Source: a virus (Duplodnaviria > Heunggongvirae > Uroviricota > Caudoviricetes). Taken from it: a DNA stretch of 8,264 nt. Each line of letters starts with the position of its first letter. Within the stretch, counting starts at the first letter, position 1. The notes under the pieces are model-generated. The model saw only the letters and a list, made by a program, of their open reading frames with translations. It searched no databases and was not told the origin of the DNA. Shown in pieces: positions 1,103-7,565 of this stretch. Position numbers and translations under genes: made by a program. Location of the stretch: IMG/VR virus record IMGVR_UViG_2713896782_000021; one strand, 5' to 3'.

Positions 1103-1234
1103 ATGTCAGACAAACTCATAATGCTGGCGAAGGGCCTTTGTGTAATCGTCGGTATTTCATTTTCACTAATGCTGGTTGTTCTTTTTCTTTCCATAACCTG
1201 GATGGCGTTGACTTCGGCAGGGCTGGTGGGGTGA
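1103..1234 (+). CDS. Hypothetical 43-aa single-helix membrane micropeptide (MSDKLIMLAKGLCVIVGISFSLMLVVLFLSITWMALTSAGLVG)
   Basis: Strong SD AAGGGG (1092-1097) 5 nt upstream of ATG 1103. One hydrophobic helix. Stop at 1232-1234 lies 11 nt before the Rz start. Found by manual translation. Confidence 0.45.
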   Translation: MSDKLIMLAKGLCVIVGISFSLMLVVLFLSITWMALTSAGLVG

Positions 1235-1245
1235 GCATAAACCGA

Positions 1246-1650
1246 ATGCTTTCCGCGTTNNNNNNNNNNNNNNNNNNNNNNNNNNNNNNNNNNNNNNNNN
1301 NNNNNNNNNCCGTTATTCTGCTGGTGGTCTGTGGTGCGCTTAGTCTGGGGCTGAATCATTACCGCGATAACGTCATCACCTACAAAGCGCAGCGCGATAA
1401 AAAAGCCAGAGAGCTGGAGCTGGCAAACGCAACCATTACTGATATGCAGGTGCGCCAGCGCGATGTTGCTGCGCTCGATGCAAAATACTCGAGGGAATTA
1501 GCCGATGCGAGAGCTGAAAATGAANNNNNNNNNNNNNNNNNNNNNNNNNNNNNNNNNNNNNNNNNNNNNNNNNNNNNNNNNNNNNNNNNNNNNNNNNNNN
1601 NNNNNNNNNNNNNGGCACAGGACTATATCCGCACTCAGTGCCTGAACTAA
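1246..1650 (+). CDS. Rz: Rz-family i-spanin (inner-membrane spanin subunit), about 134 aa; sequence interrupted by two N-masked runs
   Basis: The readable segment ([71 protein letters not shown]) is near-collinear with lambda Rz as I recall it ([57 protein letters not shown]). Start assigned to the in-frame ATG at 1246 just before the first N-run; the exact start is uncertain. C-terminus ...[11 protein letters not shown], stop at 1648-1650. Confidence 0.85.
1260..1309. other. Run of 50 ambiguous bases (N) inside the Rz 5' region
   Basis: Literal n characters in the sequence; the content cannot be known. Hides the Rz N-terminal/TM region. Confidence 1.
1525..1613. other. Run of 89 ambiguous bases (N) inside the Rz 3' region
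   Basis: Literal n characters; hides about 30 codons of Rz and the region where an embedded Rz1 o-spanin would be expected. Confidence 1.
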
Positions 1651-1951
1651 GTTTTGCTGATGCGCCGTATCGTCGCTGTATTCCCTCATTAACAGAGACC
1701 GCAGCCCGACAGGGAGACTCCTCTGCGCGAGTGTGCGGGGAGAATCAAAAACGATACGCACCGGGGTTTACCGCGTTAACGGAGCGCGGCGTTGTCCCCT
1801 CATGGTCGCTGGTTCGGTGCGATGGTGGAAGAAACCGGACGATGTGTTACCTCGCAAGACCTGTTATGTCATGTGTCTGATTTGTGATTTAAGTCGGATA
1901 ATTGTCGTTGCCATTAAGCAGAGGATTGATGGCCGACAGGGTGGCATTGTT

Positions 1952-1968
1952 AGAATAAGACTTATTCT
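1952..1968. promoter_or_regulatory. 17-bp perfect palindrome AGAATAAG-a-CTTATTCT, candidate operator about 15 bp upstream of the lipoprotein gene
   Basis: Reverse complement of 1961-1968 equals 1952-1959. Overlaps a weak candidate promoter (TTGATG 1926-1931, 19-bp spacer, TAGAAT 1951-1956). AT-rich dyad with a Fur-box-like flavour (about 12/19 to the consensus by eye); that resemblance is weak. Confidence 0.3.
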
Positions 1969-1982
1969 TATCTGTGCCGGGA

Positions 1983-2315
1983 ATGAAAATGAAAAGAAAT
2001 CTTCCGTTAATTATTTTGTTGTCTTCTCTGGTTATGGGCTGTACGCAACATAAAACAGATATGCCCCGACAGTTGGTTAAGGCATTACCACAATATCCGG
2101 CCTATGCAGCGGCAAATTATATAAAGGGACGGGTTGATGTGAAGTTTGATATTGGTGCTGATGGTACTGTCACCCGAATTGAGTTTATCCGTTCAGAGCC
2201 GCACCATCTGTTTGATGAGCAGGTTGTAAAGGCGATGGCAAAATGGCGATTTGAGAAGGACAGGCCGCGTAAAGGCGTGAAGAAAACGTTTATCTTTAGT
2301 CCTTCTGCACCCTGA
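1983..2315 (+). CDS. Lipoprotein consisting of a TonB C-terminal domain (TonB_C-like moron protein), about 110 aa
   Basis: Signal peptide MKMKRNLPLIILLSSLVMG followed by Cys (lipobox-like VMGC), with Thr at +2. The mature part aligns with the E. coli TonB C-terminal domain from memory: ours PQYPAYAAANYIKGRVDVKFDIGADGTVTRIEFIRSEPHHLFDEQVVKAMAKWRFE versus TonB [56 protein letters not shown]. No TonB N-terminal TM helix and no Pro-rich spacer. Alternative start ATG 1989 has better SD spacing (GGGA 1979-1982). Confidence 0.8.
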   Translation: MKMKRNLPLIILLSSLVMGCTQHKTDMPRQLVKALPQYPAYAAANYIKGRVDVKFDIGADGTVTRIEFIRSEPHHLFDEQVVKAMAKWRFEKDRPRKGVKKTFIFSPSAP

Positions 2316-2688: not shown

Positions 2689-3054
2689 ATGGCTGAGCTT
2701 CGTACACTCCAGAGCAGAATCAAAACACTGAATACCCGACGGGTGAATATTCTGAAGGGTGAACAGCGTCGTGTCAGTGGCAGTGCACGTGTTTCCCTCA
2801 AGCGTCATATCTGGCTCAGGGATGCCGGGCAGTGCTGTCTCTGTGGTCGTGTGGTTGACCTCTGTGACAGTGAACTCGATCACCGAATTGCACTTCAGTT
2901 CGGTGGTGGTAATGAGGAGACGAATCTCTGGACGCTCTGTACCGAATGCCATCGACAAAAGTCTGCTCGTGAAGCGGCGGGTGGTATGCCGGACCCGACG
3001 CTGCCGGAGGTGTCCGGAGGTAGTGGCAGAGCGGACGACATCATCGGACTGTAA
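2689..3054 (+). CDS. HNH endonuclease (terminase-associated), 121 aa
   Basis: SD GGGGA 6 nt upstream of ATG 2689. Motifs CCLCG (CxxC)...ELDHRIALQFGGGNEETNLWTLCTECH give a His-Asn-His core with a second Cys pair (CxxCH), the classic HNH zinc-finger nuclease. It sits immediately upstream of the cos-like region and terS, the usual position in HK97-like cos phages. Confidence 0.85.
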   Translation: MAELRTLQSRIKTLNTRRVNILKGEQRRVSGSARVSLKRHIWLRDAGQCCLCGRVVDLCDSELDHRIALQFGGGNEETNLWTLCTECHRQKSAREAAGGMPDPTLPEVSGGSGRADDIIGL

Positions 3055-3057
3055 CCC

Positions 3058-3116
3058 GAGCGGGGGGGTATCATCCGGCGTAAAAAACGATCGCTCCGGA
3101 CACCGCGCCCCCTCTC
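3058..3116. repeat. Imperfect inverted repeat GAGCGGGGG ... CCCCCTCTC flanking about 41 bp (candidate cosN-type symmetric element)
   Basis: 3058-3066 GAGCGGGGG versus reverse complement of 3108-3116 (GAGAGGGGG), 8/9 match. Located between the HNH stop and terS. Assignment as cosN is inference only. Confidence 0.25.
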
Positions 3117-3144
3117 ACGCAGAGAAAAAATTCCCGTTTCAGGG

Positions 3145-3271
3145 CAGTTAACATGTTAACTGGCTGCCCGGGCATTTTTGCGGTTTTTATCTTTATTATT
3201 CAGTTTGTTGTGCGGAAAAAATGTTAACAGGCTTTTTCAGCAAATGTTAACCAGGCAGCAGTTAACATTTG
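3145..3271. repeat. Cluster of GTTAAC-AT palindromic motifs (candidate cosB / TerS-binding or regulator sites)
   Basis: 18-bp perfect palindrome CAGTTAACATGTTAACTG (3145-3162); ATGTTAAC at 3221-3228; 11-bp inverted arms CAAATGTTAAC (3241-3251) and GTTAACATTTG (3261-3271) separated by 9 bp. Five GTTAAC hexamers in about 125 bp immediately upstream of terS. Confidence 0.6.
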
Positions 3272-3342
3272 CGGCATGAGACGCCGGGAAAAATGGGCTG
3301 AACCATACCCGGCTGAGTGCGTTCTGGACCCGGGAGGAGGCT

Positions 3343-3906
3343 GTGCTGACAACGCAAAAACGAAAATTTGCGCTGGCGCTCATGTCCGGGAAAAACAAAA
3401 CAGCGTCAGCCCTTGCCGCCGGTTATTCGGCGAAGACAGCCAGGGTTAAAGGCTCGCAGCTGGCAAAAGATCCGGAGGTGCTTGCGTTTATAGCCCGTAA
3501 ACAGTGCGAGACGGTGGAGGTGGATGAGGTTCCTGTTTATCGGCAGAAAAAATCAGAGCCGGAGGATAAACCCCGTCGCCGTGAGGCGGCTGCAATACCA
3601 CAGCCGGACGAAACAAATCCGGAGATGCCACCGCCCGTGGTGATATCTCCTGGTATTGAGTATATGGAGGACGGTCTTCCCGATCCGGTGAAAGCGATGG
3701 GGCGTCTTCTGGTGGAGAACATTAATACCGACCCCAGGCTGGCGCTGGATGCGGCTTATAAGCTGGCGCAGTTCACGCACCACAAAAAAGGGGATGCCGG
3801 TAAAAAATCGGCAAAAGGTGACGCGGCGAAAAAAGCGGCTAACCGTTTTGCGGTGCCACCACCACCCCGCCTGGTGGTGAATAATGATAATGAGGGCAAC
3901 GGATGA
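3343..3906 (+). CDS. terS: Terminase small subunit (P27-family-like), 187 aa
   Basis: GTG start with GGGAGGAGG upstream. N-terminus MLTTQKRKFALALMSGKNKTASALAAGYSAKTARVKGSQLAKDPEVLAFIARKQ fits the conserved TerS helix-turn-helix N-terminal pattern (AGYS..tA...gs.L). Lys/Ala-rich C-tail. Stop overlaps the terL ATG (ATGA). Confidence 0.85.
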   Translation: MLTTQKRKFALALMSGKNKTASALAAGYSAKTARVKGSQLAKDPEVLAFIARKQCETVEVDEVPVYRQKKSEPEDKPRRREAAAIPQPDETNPEMPPPVVISPGIEYMEDGLPDPVKAMGRLLVENINTDPRLALDAAYKLAQFTHHKKGDAGKKSAKGDAAKKAANRFAVPPPPRLVVNNDNEGNG

Positions 3907-5564
3907 TACCTGTGTGGAGCACGGCCTGCCCGGACTGGGCAGAGCGCCTGAAAAAGGGGCTGTCGATTATTCCGGCTCCGATTTATCCGGAGCAGGCCGC
4001 ACATGCCCTGGCGATTTTTAAACAACTGCGGATTGTGGATGCACCGGGCAGCCCGACGTTCGGGGAGTCCTGCGCACAGTGGGTGTTTGACCTGGTGGCG
4101 GCCCTGTTTGGCTCCTACGATGCGCAGACCGGTGTACGCCATATCAAGGAAGTTTTTATCCTTATCCCCAAGAAAAACAGCAAGTCCACGCTGGCTGCCG
4201 GGATCATGATGACGGCGCTGTTACTGAACTGGCGGCAGGCGGCGGGCTACACCATTCTGGCCCCGACCGTGGAGGTGGCGGCTAACGCCTTCAACCCTGC
4301 CAGGGATATGGTACGACGGGACGATGATCTGGATGACCTCTGTCAGGTGCAGACACATATCCGGACCATCACCCACAGGGTGACGGACACCACCCTGAAG
4401 GTGGTGGCTGCCGATCCGAATACGGTATCCGGTATCAAGTCCGTGGGGACGCTGATTGATGAACTGTGGTTATTTGGCAAGCAGTACAAAGCGGAGGACA
4501 TGTTACGTGAAGCCATAGGCGGCCTTGCCTCCCGCCCGGAAGGGTTTGTGGTGTATACGACCACCCAGTCGAATGAGCCGCCAGCCGGGGTGTTCAGACA
4601 GAAACTGCAGTACGCCCGGGATGTCCGTGACGGCAAAATTCATGATCCGCACTTTCTGCCGGTGATTTTTGAGCATCCTCCTGAAATGGTGGAAAGCGGG
4701 GCTCACCTGCTGATGGAAAACCTCGCCATGGTTAACCCGAATCTCGGTTATTCGGTGGATGAGGCTTTTCTGTACCGGGAGTACCGTAAAGCCCGGGAGG
4801 CTGGTGAGGAAGCATTTCGTGGCTTCATGTCAAAACATGCCAATGTGGAAATTGGTCTTGCCCTGCGTTCTGACCGCTGGGCGGGTGCGGATTTCTGGGA
4901 GCAGCAGGGCAGGCGCGTCAGCCTGGACGATATCCTGCAGCGCGCTGATGTGGTGACGGTGGGGATTGACGGCGGGGGCCTGGATGATCTGCTGGGAATG
5001 TACGTGATTGGCCGTGACAGGGAAACCCGCGAATGGCTGGGCTGGGGCCATGCCTGGGCGCATGAAACCGCGGTGGTCCGACGGAAGAGCGAGGCGTCCC
5101 GGTTTCAGGATCTTGTTGCCTGTGGAGATATGACCATTGTCCGGCGTGTCGGGGATGACACGGCGGAAGTGGCGGAATATGTGCGTCGCATTCATGAGGC
5201 TGAGTTACTGGACCATATCGGTATTGACCCGTCAGGGGTGGGGCAGATTCTGGATTCACTGGCGGAAGCCGGGATCCCCGACGGAATTGTGGTGGGGATA
5301 AGCCAGGGCTGGAAACTGGGCGGGGCCATTAAAACCACCGAGCGCAAACTGGCTGAAGGGGTGCTGGTGCATGGTGACCAGCCCCTGATGGCCTGGTGTG
5401 TCGGCAATGCCCGGGTGGAGCCTAAAGGTAACGCCATTCTTATCACCAAACAGGCCAGTGGACGGGGAAAAATTGACCCGCTGATGGCGCTGTTCAATGC
5501 GGTCTCCCTGATGTCCCTTAACCCGGAACCGAAAAAGAAAGAATATGCGGTTTTTTTCATATAA
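3903..5564 (+). CDS. terL: Terminase large subunit (HK97-type ATPase plus nuclease), 553 aa
   Basis: Deviant Walker A-like LIPKKNSKSTLAAG; Walker B-like LIDELWLFG; ITTAG-like VVYTTTQSNE; MVNPNLGYSV; C-terminal RNaseH-like nuclease motifs VTVGIDGGGLDDLLG and GRGKIDPLMALFNAV. Translationally coupled to terS. Confidence 0.9.
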   Translation: MIPVWSTACPDWAERLKKGLSIIPAPIYPEQAAHALAIFKQLRIVDAPGSPTFGESCAQWVFDLVAALFGSYDAQTGVRHIKEVFILIPKKNSKSTLAAGIMMTALLLNWRQAAGYTILAPTVEVAANAFNPARDMVRRDDDLDDLCQVQTHIRTITHRVTDTTLKVVAADPNTVSGIKSVGTLIDELWLFGKQYKAEDMLREAIGGLASRPEGFVVYTTTQSNEPPAGVFRQKLQYARDVRDGKIHDPHFLPVIFEHPPEMVESGAHLLMENLAMVNPNLGYSVDEAFLYREYRKAREAGEEAFRGFMSKHANVEIGLALRSDRWAGADFWEQQGRRVSLDDILQRADVVTVGIDGGGLDDLLGMYVIGRDRETREWLGWGHAWAHETAVVRRKSEASRFQDLVACGDMTIVRRVGDDTAEVAEYVRRIHEAELLDHIGIDPSGVGQILDSLAEAGIPDGIVVGISQGWKLGGAIKTTERKLAEGVLVHGDQPLMAWCVGNARVEPKGNAILITKQASGRGKIDPLMALFNAVSLMSLNPEPKKKEYAVFFI

Positions 5565-5627: not shown

Positions 5628-7565
5628 GTGACTCTTAAACGGGCCTGTTCCCTGCTGACGGTGAAATCCTTCAGTGAGGATGAACGGGTGATCACCGGGA
5701 TTGCGTCAACGCCTTCTCCGGATCGGGATGGTGACATCCTGGAGCCGGAGGGCGCGGAGTTTGGCAGTGCGATCCCGTTTCTCTGGCAGCATGACCATTC
5801 CCGCCCGGTGGGGCAGTGTACGGTGCGCCGGGTCAGCGAAGGGCTGGAAATCACGGCAACACTGGTGAAGCCCGTACCGGATATGCCGTCGCAACTGGCT
5901 GCCCGGCTGGATGAGGTCTGGGCGGCCATTAAGACCGGGCTGGTCAGGGGGCTGTCCGTGGGCTTCCGTCCCCATGAATACACCTTTCTGGACGGAGGCG
6001 GACTGCATTTTCTGCGCTGGGAACTGATGGAGGTGTCTGCCGTCACCGTGCCCGCGAATGCGGAATGCACCATCCGGACCATTAAATCTTACGACCGCCC
6101 GTTTTCTGCCGCGTCCGGCAACCGGAAACCGGTGGTGAAAATCGCATCTTCTGCCGGCGCTGCGGCACAGTCAACAACCGTTTTTCATAAGGAAAAGACC
6201 ATAATGAATATTGGCGAACAGATTAAAAGTTTTGAAAACAAGCGTGCAGCGCTGGCAGCCTCCCTTGAGGAGGTCATGACCAAAGCCGCAGAGGAAGGGC
6301 GCACGCTGGATGTGGAGGAGGAAGAGCATTACGACAACACCGCAGCGGAAATCCGTCAGGTGGATGCGCACCTGAAGCGCCTGCGTGAACTGGAAGCCGG
6401 TAAGGCCGCCACGGCGCAGCCGGTGAAACAGGCCGGTAACGGGAATGTGGCCGCGGTGGCTTCTGCGCCGGTGATCCGTGTGGAGCAGAAACTGGATAAG
6501 GGGATTGGCTTCGCCCGCTTTGCCAAATCGCTGGCTGCGGCTAAAGGCGTCCGATCTGAAGCCCTGGAAGTGGCCCGTCGTCAGTATCCGGATGACAGTC
6601 GTCTGCATCATGTCCTGAAATCGGCAGTGGGCGCGGGGACCACCACGGATCCGCAGTGGGCAGGCAGCCTGTCTGAATATCAGGAATACGCACAGGACTT
6701 TATTGATTACCTGCGTCCGCAGACCATTATCGGGCGATTTGGTCAGGGCGGGATCCCTGCACTTCGTCAGGTGCCATTCAATATCCGTGTGCACGCCCAG
6801 GTGTCCGGCGGTGCTGCCGGCTGGGTGGGTGAGGGTAAGGCAAAACCCCTGACGAAGTTTGATTTTGAATCCATCACCTTCAGTCATGCGAAGGTGTCGG
6901 CCATTGCGGTACTGACGGAAGAATTGATCCGTTTTTCCAGTCCGGCTGCTGATGCACTGGTCCGTAATGCGCTGGCGGAAGCGGTGGTGGCGCGTCTGGA
7001 TACAGACTTTGTGGACCCGAAAAAAGCCGCAGTGGCAGATGTCTCCCCGGCGTCCATCACCCATGATGTGAAGGGCACGGCATCAACCGGTAACCCGGAT
7101 GCGGATGCCGAGGCTGCGTTTGGACAGTTTGTGGCAGCAAACCTGCAGCCCACCGGTGCGGTCTGGCTGATGTCCAGCACCAATGCCCTGGCACTGTCCA
7201 TGCGTAAAAATGCGCTGGGTCAGAAGGAATACCCGGACATGACCCTGCTGGGTGGCTCCTTCCAGGGGCTGCCGGTGATTGTCTCCCAGTACGTGGGTGA
7301 CCAGCTGGTGCTGGTGAATGCCCCGGATATTTATCTGGCGGATGACGGCGGCGTGGCAGTGGATATGTCCCGCGAGGCATCACTGGAAATGCAGTCTGAG
7401 CCGGGCGGCGACAGTACCACGCCGTCCCCGGTGGAGCTGGTTTCCATGTTCCAGACAGGCAGCGTGGCCATCCGTGCGGAGCGCTGGATCAACTGGCGTC
7501 GTCGCCGTACTGCGGCGGTGGCGGTGATCACCGGAGTGAACTACGGCAGTGCGTCCGGCGGCTGA
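5628..7565 (+). CDS. Prohead protease (S78/HK97 family) fused in frame to major capsid protein (HK97 fold), 645 aa
   Basis: GTG start with AGGAGG 5 nt upstream. N-terminal about 180 aa carry S78 protease motifs (WQHDHSRPVG, GLSVGFRP, ELMEVSAVTVPANAEC). From about residue 193 the sequence is a typical capsid N-terminal delta/coiled-coil region (MNIGEQIKSFENKRAALAASLEEVMTKAAEEGRTLDVEEEE...) followed by the capsid body. No stop codon between the two domains. Confidence 0.85.
   Translation: MTLKRACSLLTVKSFSEDERVITGIASTPSPDRDGDILEPEGAEFGSAIPFLWQHDHSRPVGQCTVRRVSEGLEITATLVKPVPDMPSQLAARLDEVWAAIKTGLVRGLSVGFRPHEYTFLDGGGLHFLRWELMEVSAVTVPANAECTIRTIKSYDRPFSAASGNRKPVVKIASSAGAAAQSTTVFHKEKTIMNIGEQIKSFENKRAALAASLEEVMTKAAEEGRTLDVEEEEHYDNTAAEIRQVDAHLKRLRELEAGKAATAQPVKQAGNGNVAAVASAPVIRVEQKLDKGIGFARFAKSLAAAKGVRSEALEVARRQYPDDSRLHHVLKSAVGAGTTTDPQWAGSLSEYQEYAQDFIDYLRPQTIIGRFGQGGIPALRQVPFNIRVHAQVSGGAAGWVGEGKAKPLTKFDFESITFSHAKVSAIAVLTEELIRFSSPAADALVRNALAEAVVARLDTDFVDPKKAAVADVSPASITHDVKGTASTGNPDADAEAAFGQFVAANLQPTGAVWLMSSTNALALSMRKNALGQKEYPDMTLLGGSFQGLPVIVSQYVGDQLVLVNAPDIYLADDGGVAVDMSREASLEMQSEPGGDSTTPSPVELVSMFQTGSVAIRAERWINWRRRRTAAVAVITGVNYGSASGG
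6204..7565 (+). CDS. Major capsid protein, possible independent product from internal initiation (453 aa)
   Basis: In-frame ATG 6204 preceded by AAGGAA (6189-6194, 9-nt spacer); the encoded N-terminus MNIGEQIKSFENKRAAL is a canonical HK97-type capsid start. Whether it is actually used is an inference. Confidence 0.45.
   Translation: MNIGEQIKSFENKRAALAASLEEVMTKAAEEGRTLDVEEEEHYDNTAAEIRQVDAHLKRLRELEAGKAATAQPVKQAGNGNVAAVASAPVIRVEQKLDKGIGFARFAKSLAAAKGVRSEALEVARRQYPDDSRLHHVLKSAVGAGTTTDPQWAGSLSEYQEYAQDFIDYLRPQTIIGRFGQGGIPALRQVPFNIRVHAQVSGGAAGWVGEGKAKPLTKFDFESITFSHAKVSAIAVLTEELIRFSSPAADALVRNALAEAVVARLDTDFVDPKKAAVADVSPASITHDVKGTASTGNPDADAEAAFGQFVAANLQPTGAVWLMSSTNALALSMRKNALGQKEYPDMTLLGGSFQGLPVIVSQYVGDQLVLVNAPDIYLADDGGVAVDMSREASLEMQSEPGGDSTTPSPVELVSMFQTGSVAIRAERWINWRRRRTAAVAVITGVNYGSASGG

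Follow-up and report, generated by a model that had tools for sequence, protein, structure and literature searches.

Siderophores and vitamin B12 enter the cell mainly through TonB-dependent transporters (TBDTs), as do many phages, the colicins and microcins, and conjugates of siderophores with antibiotics. In crystal complexes, the TonB box joins the three-stranded sheet of TonB as an extra strand, and the TonB region near residue 160 touches TonB boxes in vivo (PMC9249621; PMC2533080). The TonB fragment crystallized in the complex with FhuA spans TonB residues 158–235 (PMC2533080). When overproduced, a periplasmic TonB domain inhibits the import of iron through TBDTs (PMC9841981, citing Howard et al., 2001). 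Phage T5 acts on such a transporter with Llp, an inner-leaflet outer-membrane lipoprotein that binds FhuA and excludes superinfection. In this study, we analyzed a gene at positions 1983–2315 of an 8,264-nucleotide stretch of Caudoviricetes DNA (IMG/VR record IMGVR_UViG_2713896782_000021), the whole of which is called the window here. The gene encodes a predicted lipoprotein with a TonB C-terminal domain (CTD), for which a role as a decoy for TonB boxes is tentatively proposed below.

Similar to the engineered TonB fragments (Howard, Herrmann, Stratilo & Braun, 2001), the product of this gene would be a periplasmic TonB domain uncoupled from its energy source. The engineered fragments were artificial, soluble and overexpressed pieces of TonB itself, whereas the phage lipoprotein is natural, predicted to be lipid-anchored, a diverged paralog and equipped with a candidate promoter of its own. 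Similar to T5 Llp and lambdoid Cor, it is a small phage lipoprotein whose proposed target is a TonB-dependent receptor. Different from Llp and Cor, to which it is unrelated in sequence and fold, its structural neighbors are TonB and TolA domains only; moreover, Llp and Cor are specific to one receptor, whereas a mimic of the TonB domain could act on all bearers of a TonB box. Similar to Bor/Iss, it belongs to the outer-membrane lipoprotein morons (a moron being an autonomously transcribed prophage accessory gene) that lie between lysis genes and cos, although for this protein the membrane location is predicted. Bor/Iss is, however, an unrelated protein that co-occurs with the TonB-like gene instead of alternating with it. 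Finally, the Fur-regulated morons, such as sitABCD and stx1 of Stx1 phages, which is under Fur control, are also prophage cargo expected to be on under iron limitation. Different from these, Fur control of the TonB-like gene is only predicted from operator sequences, which are strong in the lineages of Salmonella, Serratia, Pantoea, and Erwinia but weak in the window.

The TonB-like gene and the parts of its product are as follows.

1983 to 2315, plus strand: coding sequence of the predicted lipoprotein with a TonB CTD, with the stop codon TGA at 2313 to 2315 (list of open reading frames and sequence)
1989 to 2042, plus strand: predicted signal peptide with the lipobox L-V-M-G-C, with the Cys codon at 2040 to 2042 and Thr at +2 (read from the sequence)
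2043 to 2063, plus strand: short tether TQHKTDM between the predicted anchor and the folded domain (low pLDDT before residue 28)
2064 to 2300, plus strand: TonB CTD, residues 28 to 106, equivalent to E. coli TonB 153 to 231, with the YP motif and beta3 (Pfam, TIGRFAM, PDB, AlphaFold/Foldseek)

Pfam TonB_C (PF03544) matched at E = 5.5e-15 and 56 bits, against a cutoff of 24.6, and TIGR01352 at 56.5 bits, against a cutoff of 27.1. PF03544 also matched 31 of 31 family members. The chains of the E. coli TonB CTD in the PDB (1u07, 2gsk_B, and 2grx_C) were matched over residues 28–106 with E values from 5e-16 to 2e-15. The identity to the E. coli TonB CTD was 31 of 79 residues (39%), and PQYPA, VKFD, DG, AM, and WR were common to both. 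The NCBIfam equivalog models of TonB were matched only over their last ~80 positions, with 50–73 bits against cutoffs of 265–448, a partial match that reflects the CTD alone and not a whole TonB. The only Pfam families matched were TonB_C and TonB_2, and thus no sequence homology to Cor or Llp was found.

The structure was modeled by AlphaFold2 from 31 sequences of the family. Its mean predicted local distance difference test (pLDDT) score was 85.9, with the domain above 95 and the signal peptide and tether disordered. The predicted fold is a three-stranded sheet packed on helices and is superposable on solved TonB CTDs. When the model was compared with the PDB by Foldseek, the top 16 hits were all CTDs of TonB or TonB homologs. 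The template modeling score (TM-score) was 0.88 for 1u07_A, 0.94 for 2gsk_B, which is TonB of the BtuB complex (root-mean-square deviation, rmsd, 1.1 Å over 81 columns), and 0.92 for 2grx_C, which is TonB from the FhuA complex (rmsd 1.1 Å). TolA domain III was among the matches as a weak and distant one, and nothing significant was found with the model in the viral structures of BFVD. Thus, from ~residue 150 to 239 of E. coli TonB, the lipoprotein shares the fold (TM-score 0.88–0.94, rmsd 1.1 Å), 37–39% of the residues, the YP motif, the aromatic core and the beta3 edge strand. Different from TonB, it has neither the transmembrane helix nor the Pro-rich rod, so coupling to ExbB/ExbD is absent, and it is predicted to be anchored by lipid from the side of the outer membrane, whereas TonB is anchored in the inner membrane.

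The lipoprotein domain covers approximately the TonB fragment that was crystallized bound to TonB boxes. The TonB residues retained, as mapped by the 1u07 alignment, are P161, Y163, P164, G174, F180, G186, F202, W213, P220, and F230. The numbering is that of K-12 TonB, which is consistent with chain 1u07 beginning at residue 150. Y215 of TonB is Phe in the lipoprotein, R158 is Lys, and Q160 is Leu35; R166 is Tyr here and in nearly all members, and positions 158 and 160 are variable in the family. The lipoprotein also ends four residues earlier than TonB and falls into a separate clade. Q160L is a functional TonB allele that suppresses TonB-box mutations (PMC2533080). As judged from the alignment, conservation extends to the YP/aromatic pocket and to that part of the interface which is driven by the backbone, whereas the peripheral side-chain contacts are not kept. 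In addition, the family has conserved motifs of its own, namely YPYYA, SEPxHLFDD, and KWRFEK.

The open reading frame at 1983–2315 encodes 110 residues from ATG 1983 and 108 from ATG 1989. The Shine-Dalgarno sequence GGGA (1979–1982) directly abuts ATG 1983 and lies 6 nt before ATG 1989, and RefSeq WP_000828070 (“TonB family protein,” 108 residues) and all homologs use the second ATG, i.e., the methionine of MKR. Because of this spacing and these starts, ATG 1989 is probably the true start. The product reads MKMKRNLPLIILLSSLVMG-C-TQHKTDM, followed by ~80 residues that align with E. coli TonB 153–231 without a gap. In the N-terminal part, a basic n-region is followed by a hydrophobic core and by LVMG-C, in agreement with the PROSITE lipobox rule; this part is thus a predicted cleavable lipoprotein signal peptide and not the transmembrane helix that couples TonB to ExbB/ExbD. 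The lipobox Cys was invariant in 31 aligned family members. LVMG-C, following a signal peptide, also conforms to the pattern [LVI][ASTVIM][GAS]C. When 45 proteins, comprising members of the family and short TonB_C relatives, were scanned, a lipobox was called in 37, and none of these had Asp at +2. By the +2 rule, Lol-dependent sorting to the outer membrane is predicted; lipidation and topology are likewise predictions. Only 7 residues separate the Cys that would be lipid-modified from the domain, with no Pro-rich periplasm-spanning spacer, and in nearly all members scanned the P-x-Y-P motif lay 14–23 residues from the Cys.

These results agree with most of what the preliminary description had read from the sequence: a 110-residue lipoprotein with Thr at +2, homology to the TonB CTD, and the absence of both the transmembrane helix and the Pro-rich spacer. 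The two computational outcomes that it had named as refuting, no significant TonB_C hit or a fold that does not superpose on the TonB CTD, did not occur, since TonB_C was matched and the model superposes on TonB taken from its TonB-box complexes (rmsd 1.1 Å). Its estimate of 40–45% identity over about 70 residues was slightly high, although the homology and shared motifs behind it stand. It had also described the gene as AT-rich relative to the packaging module, which holds (GC 43.5% vs. 55–60% in the packaging genes). The neighboring antirepressor and DUF3950 genes are at 46–47%; the gene is therefore AT-rich compared with the packaging genes only and is no isolated island. Between the allele of the window and that of phage 21, the ratio of nonsynonymous to synonymous substitution rates (dN/dS) was 0.12, with a dS of ~1.5; the gene is thus real and under purifying selection.

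An exhaustive HMMER scan returned 4903 proteins at E ≤ 1e-3, which were mostly long and TonB-like, as well as a set of ~110-residue TonB_C proteins with lipoboxes. By profile search, members were found in Klebsiella, Raoultella, Pantoea, Erwinia, Rahnella, and Salmonella. Several of them are stand-alone chromosomal genes in metabolic neighborhoods, as in Pantoea agglomerans, Erwinia and Raoultella, in the last of which the gene adjoins lacIZY, and no lysis or packaging homologs were found within 6 kb of the chromosomal loci of Raoultella, Pantoea, and Erwinia. In a neighbor-joining tree of the domain, which was computed from a short alignment without bootstrap and is indicative only, the lipoproteins formed one clade apart from the enterobacterial TonB CTDs, and the E. 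coli phage alleles were sister to the Klebsiella/Raoultella group. The phage gene thus appears, on this indicative evidence, to be a member of an older family of Enterobacterales lipoproteins with chromosomal members, which is newly recognized here. A recent capture of the 3′ end of E. coli tonB was also considered and was rejected because of the separate lipoprotein clade in this tree.

Members of the family vary at both ends. In six clusters of the phage-21 type (P0010, P0012, P0013, P0018, P0019, and P0021), a frameshift just before beta3 replaces the C-terminus; one of these clusters comprises 130 sequences, so part of that population is devoid of the presumed binding strand. A few Pantoea members (P0146 and P0203) have lost the lipobox Cys (ITSY/ITSH) and could be soluble periplasmic proteins. 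P0152 and P0155, two longer proteins of 152 and 156 residues, have a lipobox followed by a longer linker, and the domain of P0152 is more TonB-like, which suggests intermediate forms. Moreover, a gene for a DUF1440 membrane protein was found near the lipoprotein gene both in a Klebsiella prophage (locus L005, 1277–1903, upstream of the holin gene) and in the Raoultella chromosome (locus L006, 7731–8294, downstream), which may be a coincidence or a trace of shared origin.

Two features lie immediately upstream of the TonB-like gene.

1948 to 1956, plus strand: candidate extended -10 element TGtTAGAAT, without a good -35 element (read from the sequence)
1952 to 1972, no strand assigned: candidate operator, composed of the perfect 8-1-8 palindrome AGAATAAGaCTTATTCT (1952 to 1968) and the overlapping 19-mer AATAAGACTTATTCTTATC (1954 to 1972)

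Visual inspection and comparison with homologs revealed the extended -10. TGtTAG(A/T)AT is also present upstream of the Salmonella-type and L059 alleles, and phage 21 and Perceval have CAGAAT. A generic promoter and terminator scan around the gene found no plus-strand sigma-70 -35/-10 pair and no intrinsic terminator. Because there is no terminator after Rz, the late transcript would also read the TonB-like gene during the lytic cycle. On the minus strand, a near-consensus sigma-70 promoter (TTCACA-16-TATAAT, 11/12) lies inside the gene at 2116–2143; it was the only hit of a scan of 1600–2750, where shuffled sequences average 2 hits, so it may be due to chance. As a conserved operator, the palindrome at 1952–1968 was rejected, since its right arm is missing in the phage-21/Perceval allele and it is therefore allele-specific.

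The 130 nt upstream of the start codons were then compared with the 19-bp Fur consensus GATAATGATAATCATTATC, with the following best sites.

Chromosome, Pantoea metagenome-assembled genome (L022): TATAATGATAATCTTTATC, 2 mismatches
Chromosome, P. agglomerans (L009): TATAATGATAATGTTTATC, 3 mismatches
Chromosome, Erwinia (L014): TAAAATGATAATCATTCTC, 3 mismatches
Chromosome, Raoultella (L006): GAGAATTATTATCAATATG, 4 mismatches
Chromosome, other Pantoea and Erwinia loci: various sequences, 4 to 6 mismatches
Prophage, L059: TTGATAATCATTATCAA, 3 mismatches, counted on the 19-mer AGTATTGATAATCATTATC
Prophage, Serratia type (L076): GTTATTGAAAATCATTATC, 3 mismatches
Prophage, Salmonella type (L065): TTGATAATTATTATCAA, 4 mismatches, counted on the 19-mer AGTATTGATAATTATTATC
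Prophage, Klebsiella aerogenes type (L054): GATAATGTTGATTATCATT, 5 mismatches
Prophage, the window: AATAAGACTTATTCTTATC at 1954 to 1972, 6 mismatches
Prophage, Klebsiella phage (L005): GATAATGTTGATTTACATT, 7 mismatches
Prophage, Rahnella (L011): none convincing, 8 mismatches
Prophage, phage 21 and Perceval: none, 9 mismatches

Fur boxes with 2–5 mismatches (14–17 of 19 positions matching) were found in at least 10 lineages. In tiled 135-nt control segments, sites with 4 or fewer mismatches occurred in 0 of 1416 segments from the chromosomal loci, 2 of 1207 from the viral loci and 0 of 357 AT-rich ones. The sites of L059 and of the Salmonella type have a perfect palindromic core of the TGATAATnATTATCA kind, and in both alleles the Fur box begins within the TGtTAGTAT extended -10. 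From these operator sequences, it is predicted that the family is very probably repressed by Fur in most lineages, which is a new prediction of this study. The 19-mer of the window, AATAAGACTTATTCTTATC, matches the consensus at 13 of 19 positions, a score equaled by 61 of 2000 shuffles (p ~0.03) and weak on its own; its offset from the start codon is that of the Fur boxes of several homologs, which lie at about -20 to -36. The operator of the window may be a diverged palindrome, and its regulator may be Fur, acting weakly, or something else.

The genes around the TonB-like gene in the window are the following.

1192 to 1650, plus strand: Rz i-spanin gene, with the embedded Rz1 o-spanin gene at about 1403 to 1588 (comparison with the O157:H7 prophage locus L001)
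2447 to 2647 (2447 to 2707 in a longer delimitation), minus strand: convergent YlcI/YnfO-family (DUF3950) gene (Pfam DUF3950, E = 6e-20; PHROG 949; RefSeq)
2689 to 5564, plus strand: packaging module, with HNH at 2689 to 3054, terS at 3343 to 3906 and terL at 3903 to 5564 (Pfam and RefSeq)

The gene order of the window is thus antirepressor, Rz, TonB-like gene, DUF3950 (convergent), HNH, terS, terL, and capsid. Rz and the embedded Rz1 are in part hidden by runs of N at 1260–1309 (50 bases) and 1525–1613 (89 bases); without such masking, L001 of O157:H7 (8343–8801) has a normal Rz (“lysis protein”) with an embedded 61-residue Pro-rich lipoprotein, Rz1, and its holin and lysozyme genes lie upstream of the antirepressor gene. 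Over positions 1850–2450, the window has 100% identity with prophages, L001 among them, in O157:H7 and further Shiga toxin-producing E. coli (STEC). Of 5426 complete E. coli genomes, 417 carry the allele of the window, in every case chromosomally and in up to 4 copies per genome, and it is also present in the Stx1a-converting phages JLK-2012 and Lys8385Vzw. A 71%-identical allele occurs in phage 21 (“TonB C-terminal domain protein”), Perceval of the adherent-invasive E. coli (AIEC) strain LF82 (“TonB fragment”), ev017 and others, and in 1225 of the 5426 genomes, including UTI89. Roughly 23–30% of complete E. coli genomes therefore carry the gene. Prophages of Klebsiella, K. aerogenes, Serratia, and Rahnella carry more distant alleles, with 33–54% identity, as do those of Salmonella enterica, in which such an allele was seen on at least 1000 contigs.

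In the prophage loci with enough flanking sequence, the TonB-like gene was always downstream of the lysis genes, and packaging genes, where detected, were downstream of it. This slot was constant across five genera. It was also independent of the endolysin, of which three or more types were represented, and of whether the packaging module was HNH/terS/terL or the lambda-type Nu1/A. In RNA-seq of LF82 grown in LB culture, the Perceval gene LF82_160, “TonB fragment,” was 8-fold above the prophage background, the threshold for listing being at least 5-fold (PMC9928086). Perceval has a single homolog, annotated in the same words, and the identification of LF82_160 with this homolog rests on that match. 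Thus, the Perceval homolog is transcribed in the LF82 lysogen. Because its slot is conserved across module types, it has an extended -10 of its own and a homolog is transcribed in a lysogen, the TonB-like gene behaves as a moron.

The preliminary description had placed the gene after Rz and before terS and had called it a moron, and both statements are borne out, the latter by the slot in five genera, the conserved extended -10 and the transcribed Perceval homolog. It had further equated the position with the slot of bor or cor. The region, between lysis genes and cos, is indeed the same, but bor is not replaced: in phage 21, in Perceval and in the prophage of UTI89, bor/iss lies ~480 bp from the TonB-like gene.

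Several other observations were made around the locus. The phage-21-type allele is accompanied by a porin gene (nmpC/ompC-like) and bor/iss in Perceval and UTI89 (L016), and by sitABCD in Perceval (OV696612). It is speculative that SitABCD, which mediates TonB-independent Mn/Fe uptake, could offset a block of TonB. The stretch from the Rz stop codon to the TonB-like gene (1700–1880), compared with 3720–3900 of L003/L004, has a mean column identity of 77%, gapped columns included; it is better conserved than the TonB-like gene itself (77% vs. 72% at the nucleotide level), with long invariant runs, and holds the conserved start of an open reading frame, MVEETG(R/S)C..., which is a 45-residue hypothetical protein in phage 21. 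Nothing in Rfam matched 1500–2800, and RNA folding of the spacer between Rz and the gene was unremarkable (z = -1.4). The DUF3950 gene, between the TonB-like gene and HNH, would be read antisense by late transcription. Finally, the 645-residue “major capsid protein” (5628–7565) is a Peptidase_S78 prohead protease (residues 48–152) fused to an HK97-type capsid protein (residues 386–635).

For the function of the lipoprotein, we tentatively favor a decoy that excludes phages and colicins by mimicry of TonB, a reading to which we give somewhat less than an even chance, the remainder being spread over the alternatives below and over unassigned ones. The short tether would hold a complete TonB CTD just under the TBDTs. 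There, the domain, with its beta3 edge strand, YP motif and aromatic core, would dock by beta-strand addition on the TonB boxes that receptors and group B colicins on their way in present. Without the ExbB/ExbD-coupled helix and the periplasm-spanning rod, it would dock and could not pull, and the net effect would be competition with scarce genuine TonB. The entry of TonB-dependent phages (such as T1 and phi80), group B colicins and siderophore-microcins would be dampened, at a cost to siderophore and B12 uptake, and with the predicted Fur repression in most lineages the protein would appear once the receptors are derepressed. As T5 Llp shows, FhuA can be reached on its periplasmic face by a lipoprotein of the inner leaflet, with phage exclusion as the result. 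Engineered TonB fragments reportedly affect colicin M, phi80, and T1 as well. The premise of the preliminary description, that TonB fragments are dominant-negative, is supported here for the inhibition of iron import only (PMC9841981).

A wider form of this proposal, possible but held with still more reserve, is that the whole Fur-controlled family of predicted outer-membrane lipoproteins is a natural TonB mimic, which would occupy TonB boxes (or TonB) without energy transduction, so that one protein of 108 residues would provide pan-receptor protection from TonB-dependent phages, group B colicins and siderophore-microcins under iron starvation. In this form, the mimic would be encoded chromosomally in Erwiniaceae, whereas E. 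coli, Salmonella, Klebsiella, Serratia, and Rahnella would carry it as a moron of their prophages. Control by Fur fits a shield scaled to receptor derepression, as iron-poor conditions would be those in which siderophore-microcins and group B colicins are most dangerous.

A number of points weigh against the decoy reading. The predicted response to iron starvation is a rise in expression at the time when a block of TonB would cost most, which weakens the case for a simple constitutive inhibitor, and the chromosomal, non-prophage members of Pantoea, Erwinia and Raoultella, together with Fur induction, suggest a physiological role in iron starvation. In the window itself, the Fur-like site is weak (13/19), and the phage-21 allele has none. 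The tether has ~7 residues, and in known complexes the N-terminus of the TonB CTD leads toward the inner membrane, so a domain anchored in the outer membrane may be unable to reach TonB boxes in the productive orientation. Receptors far outnumber TonB; blocking them would therefore need high expression. The TonB side chains that contact receptors outside beta3 are not conserved, and the domain has its own surface (SEPxHLFDD/KWRFEK), so its target may be other than canonical TonB boxes. No match to the PADLOC-DB models of defense proteins was found at E ≤ 0.01, and the full-text literature searched contained no functional study of the protein or of any family member.

Part of this evidence is shared by an unlikely, yet not negligible, alternative, in which the lipoprotein assists TonB-dependent uptake as an accessory or positive factor. 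As an outer-membrane-anchored paralog induced by iron starvation, it would organize, stabilize or pre-position transporters or gate the access of the limiting TonB to loaded receptors, and the prophage copy would serve fitness in iron-poor niches and not exclusion. The near-consensus Fur boxes upstream of chromosomal and prophage members, the stand-alone chromosomal copies with no phage genes nearby and the carriage together with the metal-uptake moron sitABCD in Perceval are all consistent with it. However, an uncoupled domain has no known way of promoting transport, the sole experimental precedent for an uncoupled periplasmic TonB domain is inhibition, and variable chromosomal contexts are typical of accessory or defense genes and not of core uptake machinery.

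It is also conceivable, at a low probability, that TonB itself is sequestered. The anchored domain would heterodimerize with the TonB CTD and trap the few TonB molecules at the outer membrane, which would be a stoichiometrically cheaper form of dominant-negative action. TonB CTD fragments crystallize as dimers, and the 1u07 entry holds two chains of the TonB CTD sequence. The lipoprotein retains the aromatic positions F202, W213, Y215 (here Phe), and F230; changed to Cys, these residues reportedly give TonB-TonB disulfides in vivo in work of the Postle laboratory. The crystallographic TonB dimers are, however, reported to be absent in vivo (PMC3005593).

Improbable in our view is a lipoprotein of the envelope-stabilizing or serum-resistance type that, like Pal or Bor/Iss, would bind peptidoglycan, Lpp or OmpA, in a role unrelated to TonB boxes. 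The TonB CTD is reported to associate with peptidoglycan, Lpp and OmpA, and the gene adjoins bor/iss in phage 21, Perceval and UTI89. Against this, the predicted Fur regulation links the family to the iron/TonB pathway, and conservation covers the TonB-specific core and the YP motif and not a known peptidoglycan-binding motif.

That the lipoprotein is a lysis accessory or spanin component is hardly credible: it is encoded right after Rz and matches phrog_1267, “Rz-like spanin,” over its full length (E = 1.9e-42), but a complete Rz/Rz1 pair is already there (annotated i- and o-spanins in phage 21, the embedded Pro-rich Rz1 in L001), its globular TonB fold is not a Pro-rich Rz1-like peptide and lacks the C-terminal transmembrane segment of a unimolecular spanin, and chromosomal members lie far from any lysis gene, so that a spanin identity was rejected. 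In the lysis category of PHROGs, phrog_1267 is the lipoprotein TonB_C family, and its label appears to be a positional mis-annotation that PHROGs-based pipelines would propagate. Extremely unlikely, too, is a decaying, non-functional “TonB fragment” left by illegitimate recombination: several records say “partial” or “fragment” and frameshifted C-terminal variants of the phage-21 allele exist, such as the 130-sequence cluster without beta3, but the pseudogene reading is contradicted by the dN/dS of 0.12, the invariant signal peptide and lipobox, the clade distinct from true TonB CTDs, the slot conserved across genera and the homolog transcribed in a lysogen.

The open reading frame itself was already known, being annotated as “TonB family protein” in thousands of records and present in the classical phage 21, whose genome announcement does not mention the TonB-like gene. 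The decoy idea was not found in the full-text literature searched. New in this study are the Fur boxes in most lineages and the chromosomal lipoprotein relatives, of which the Fur finding speaks partly against the simplest form of a decoy. A plasmid, an iron chelator and a small set of phages and colicins would be enough to test the hypothesis. If it is true, exclusion would work by mimicry of the energy transducer and would potentially be pan-receptor, compared with the receptor-specific Cor and Llp. A CTD anchored in the outer membrane would also be a natural experiment on the debated mechanics between TonB and its transporters. A mobile mimic of the TonB tip would then be a new single-gene means to tune or block the whole TonB-dependent route, and it would bear on phage and bacteriocin resistance in STEC, extraintestinal pathogenic E. 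coli, AIEC and Salmonella, on competition in the iron-poor inflamed gut and on susceptibility to Trojan-horse antibiotics.

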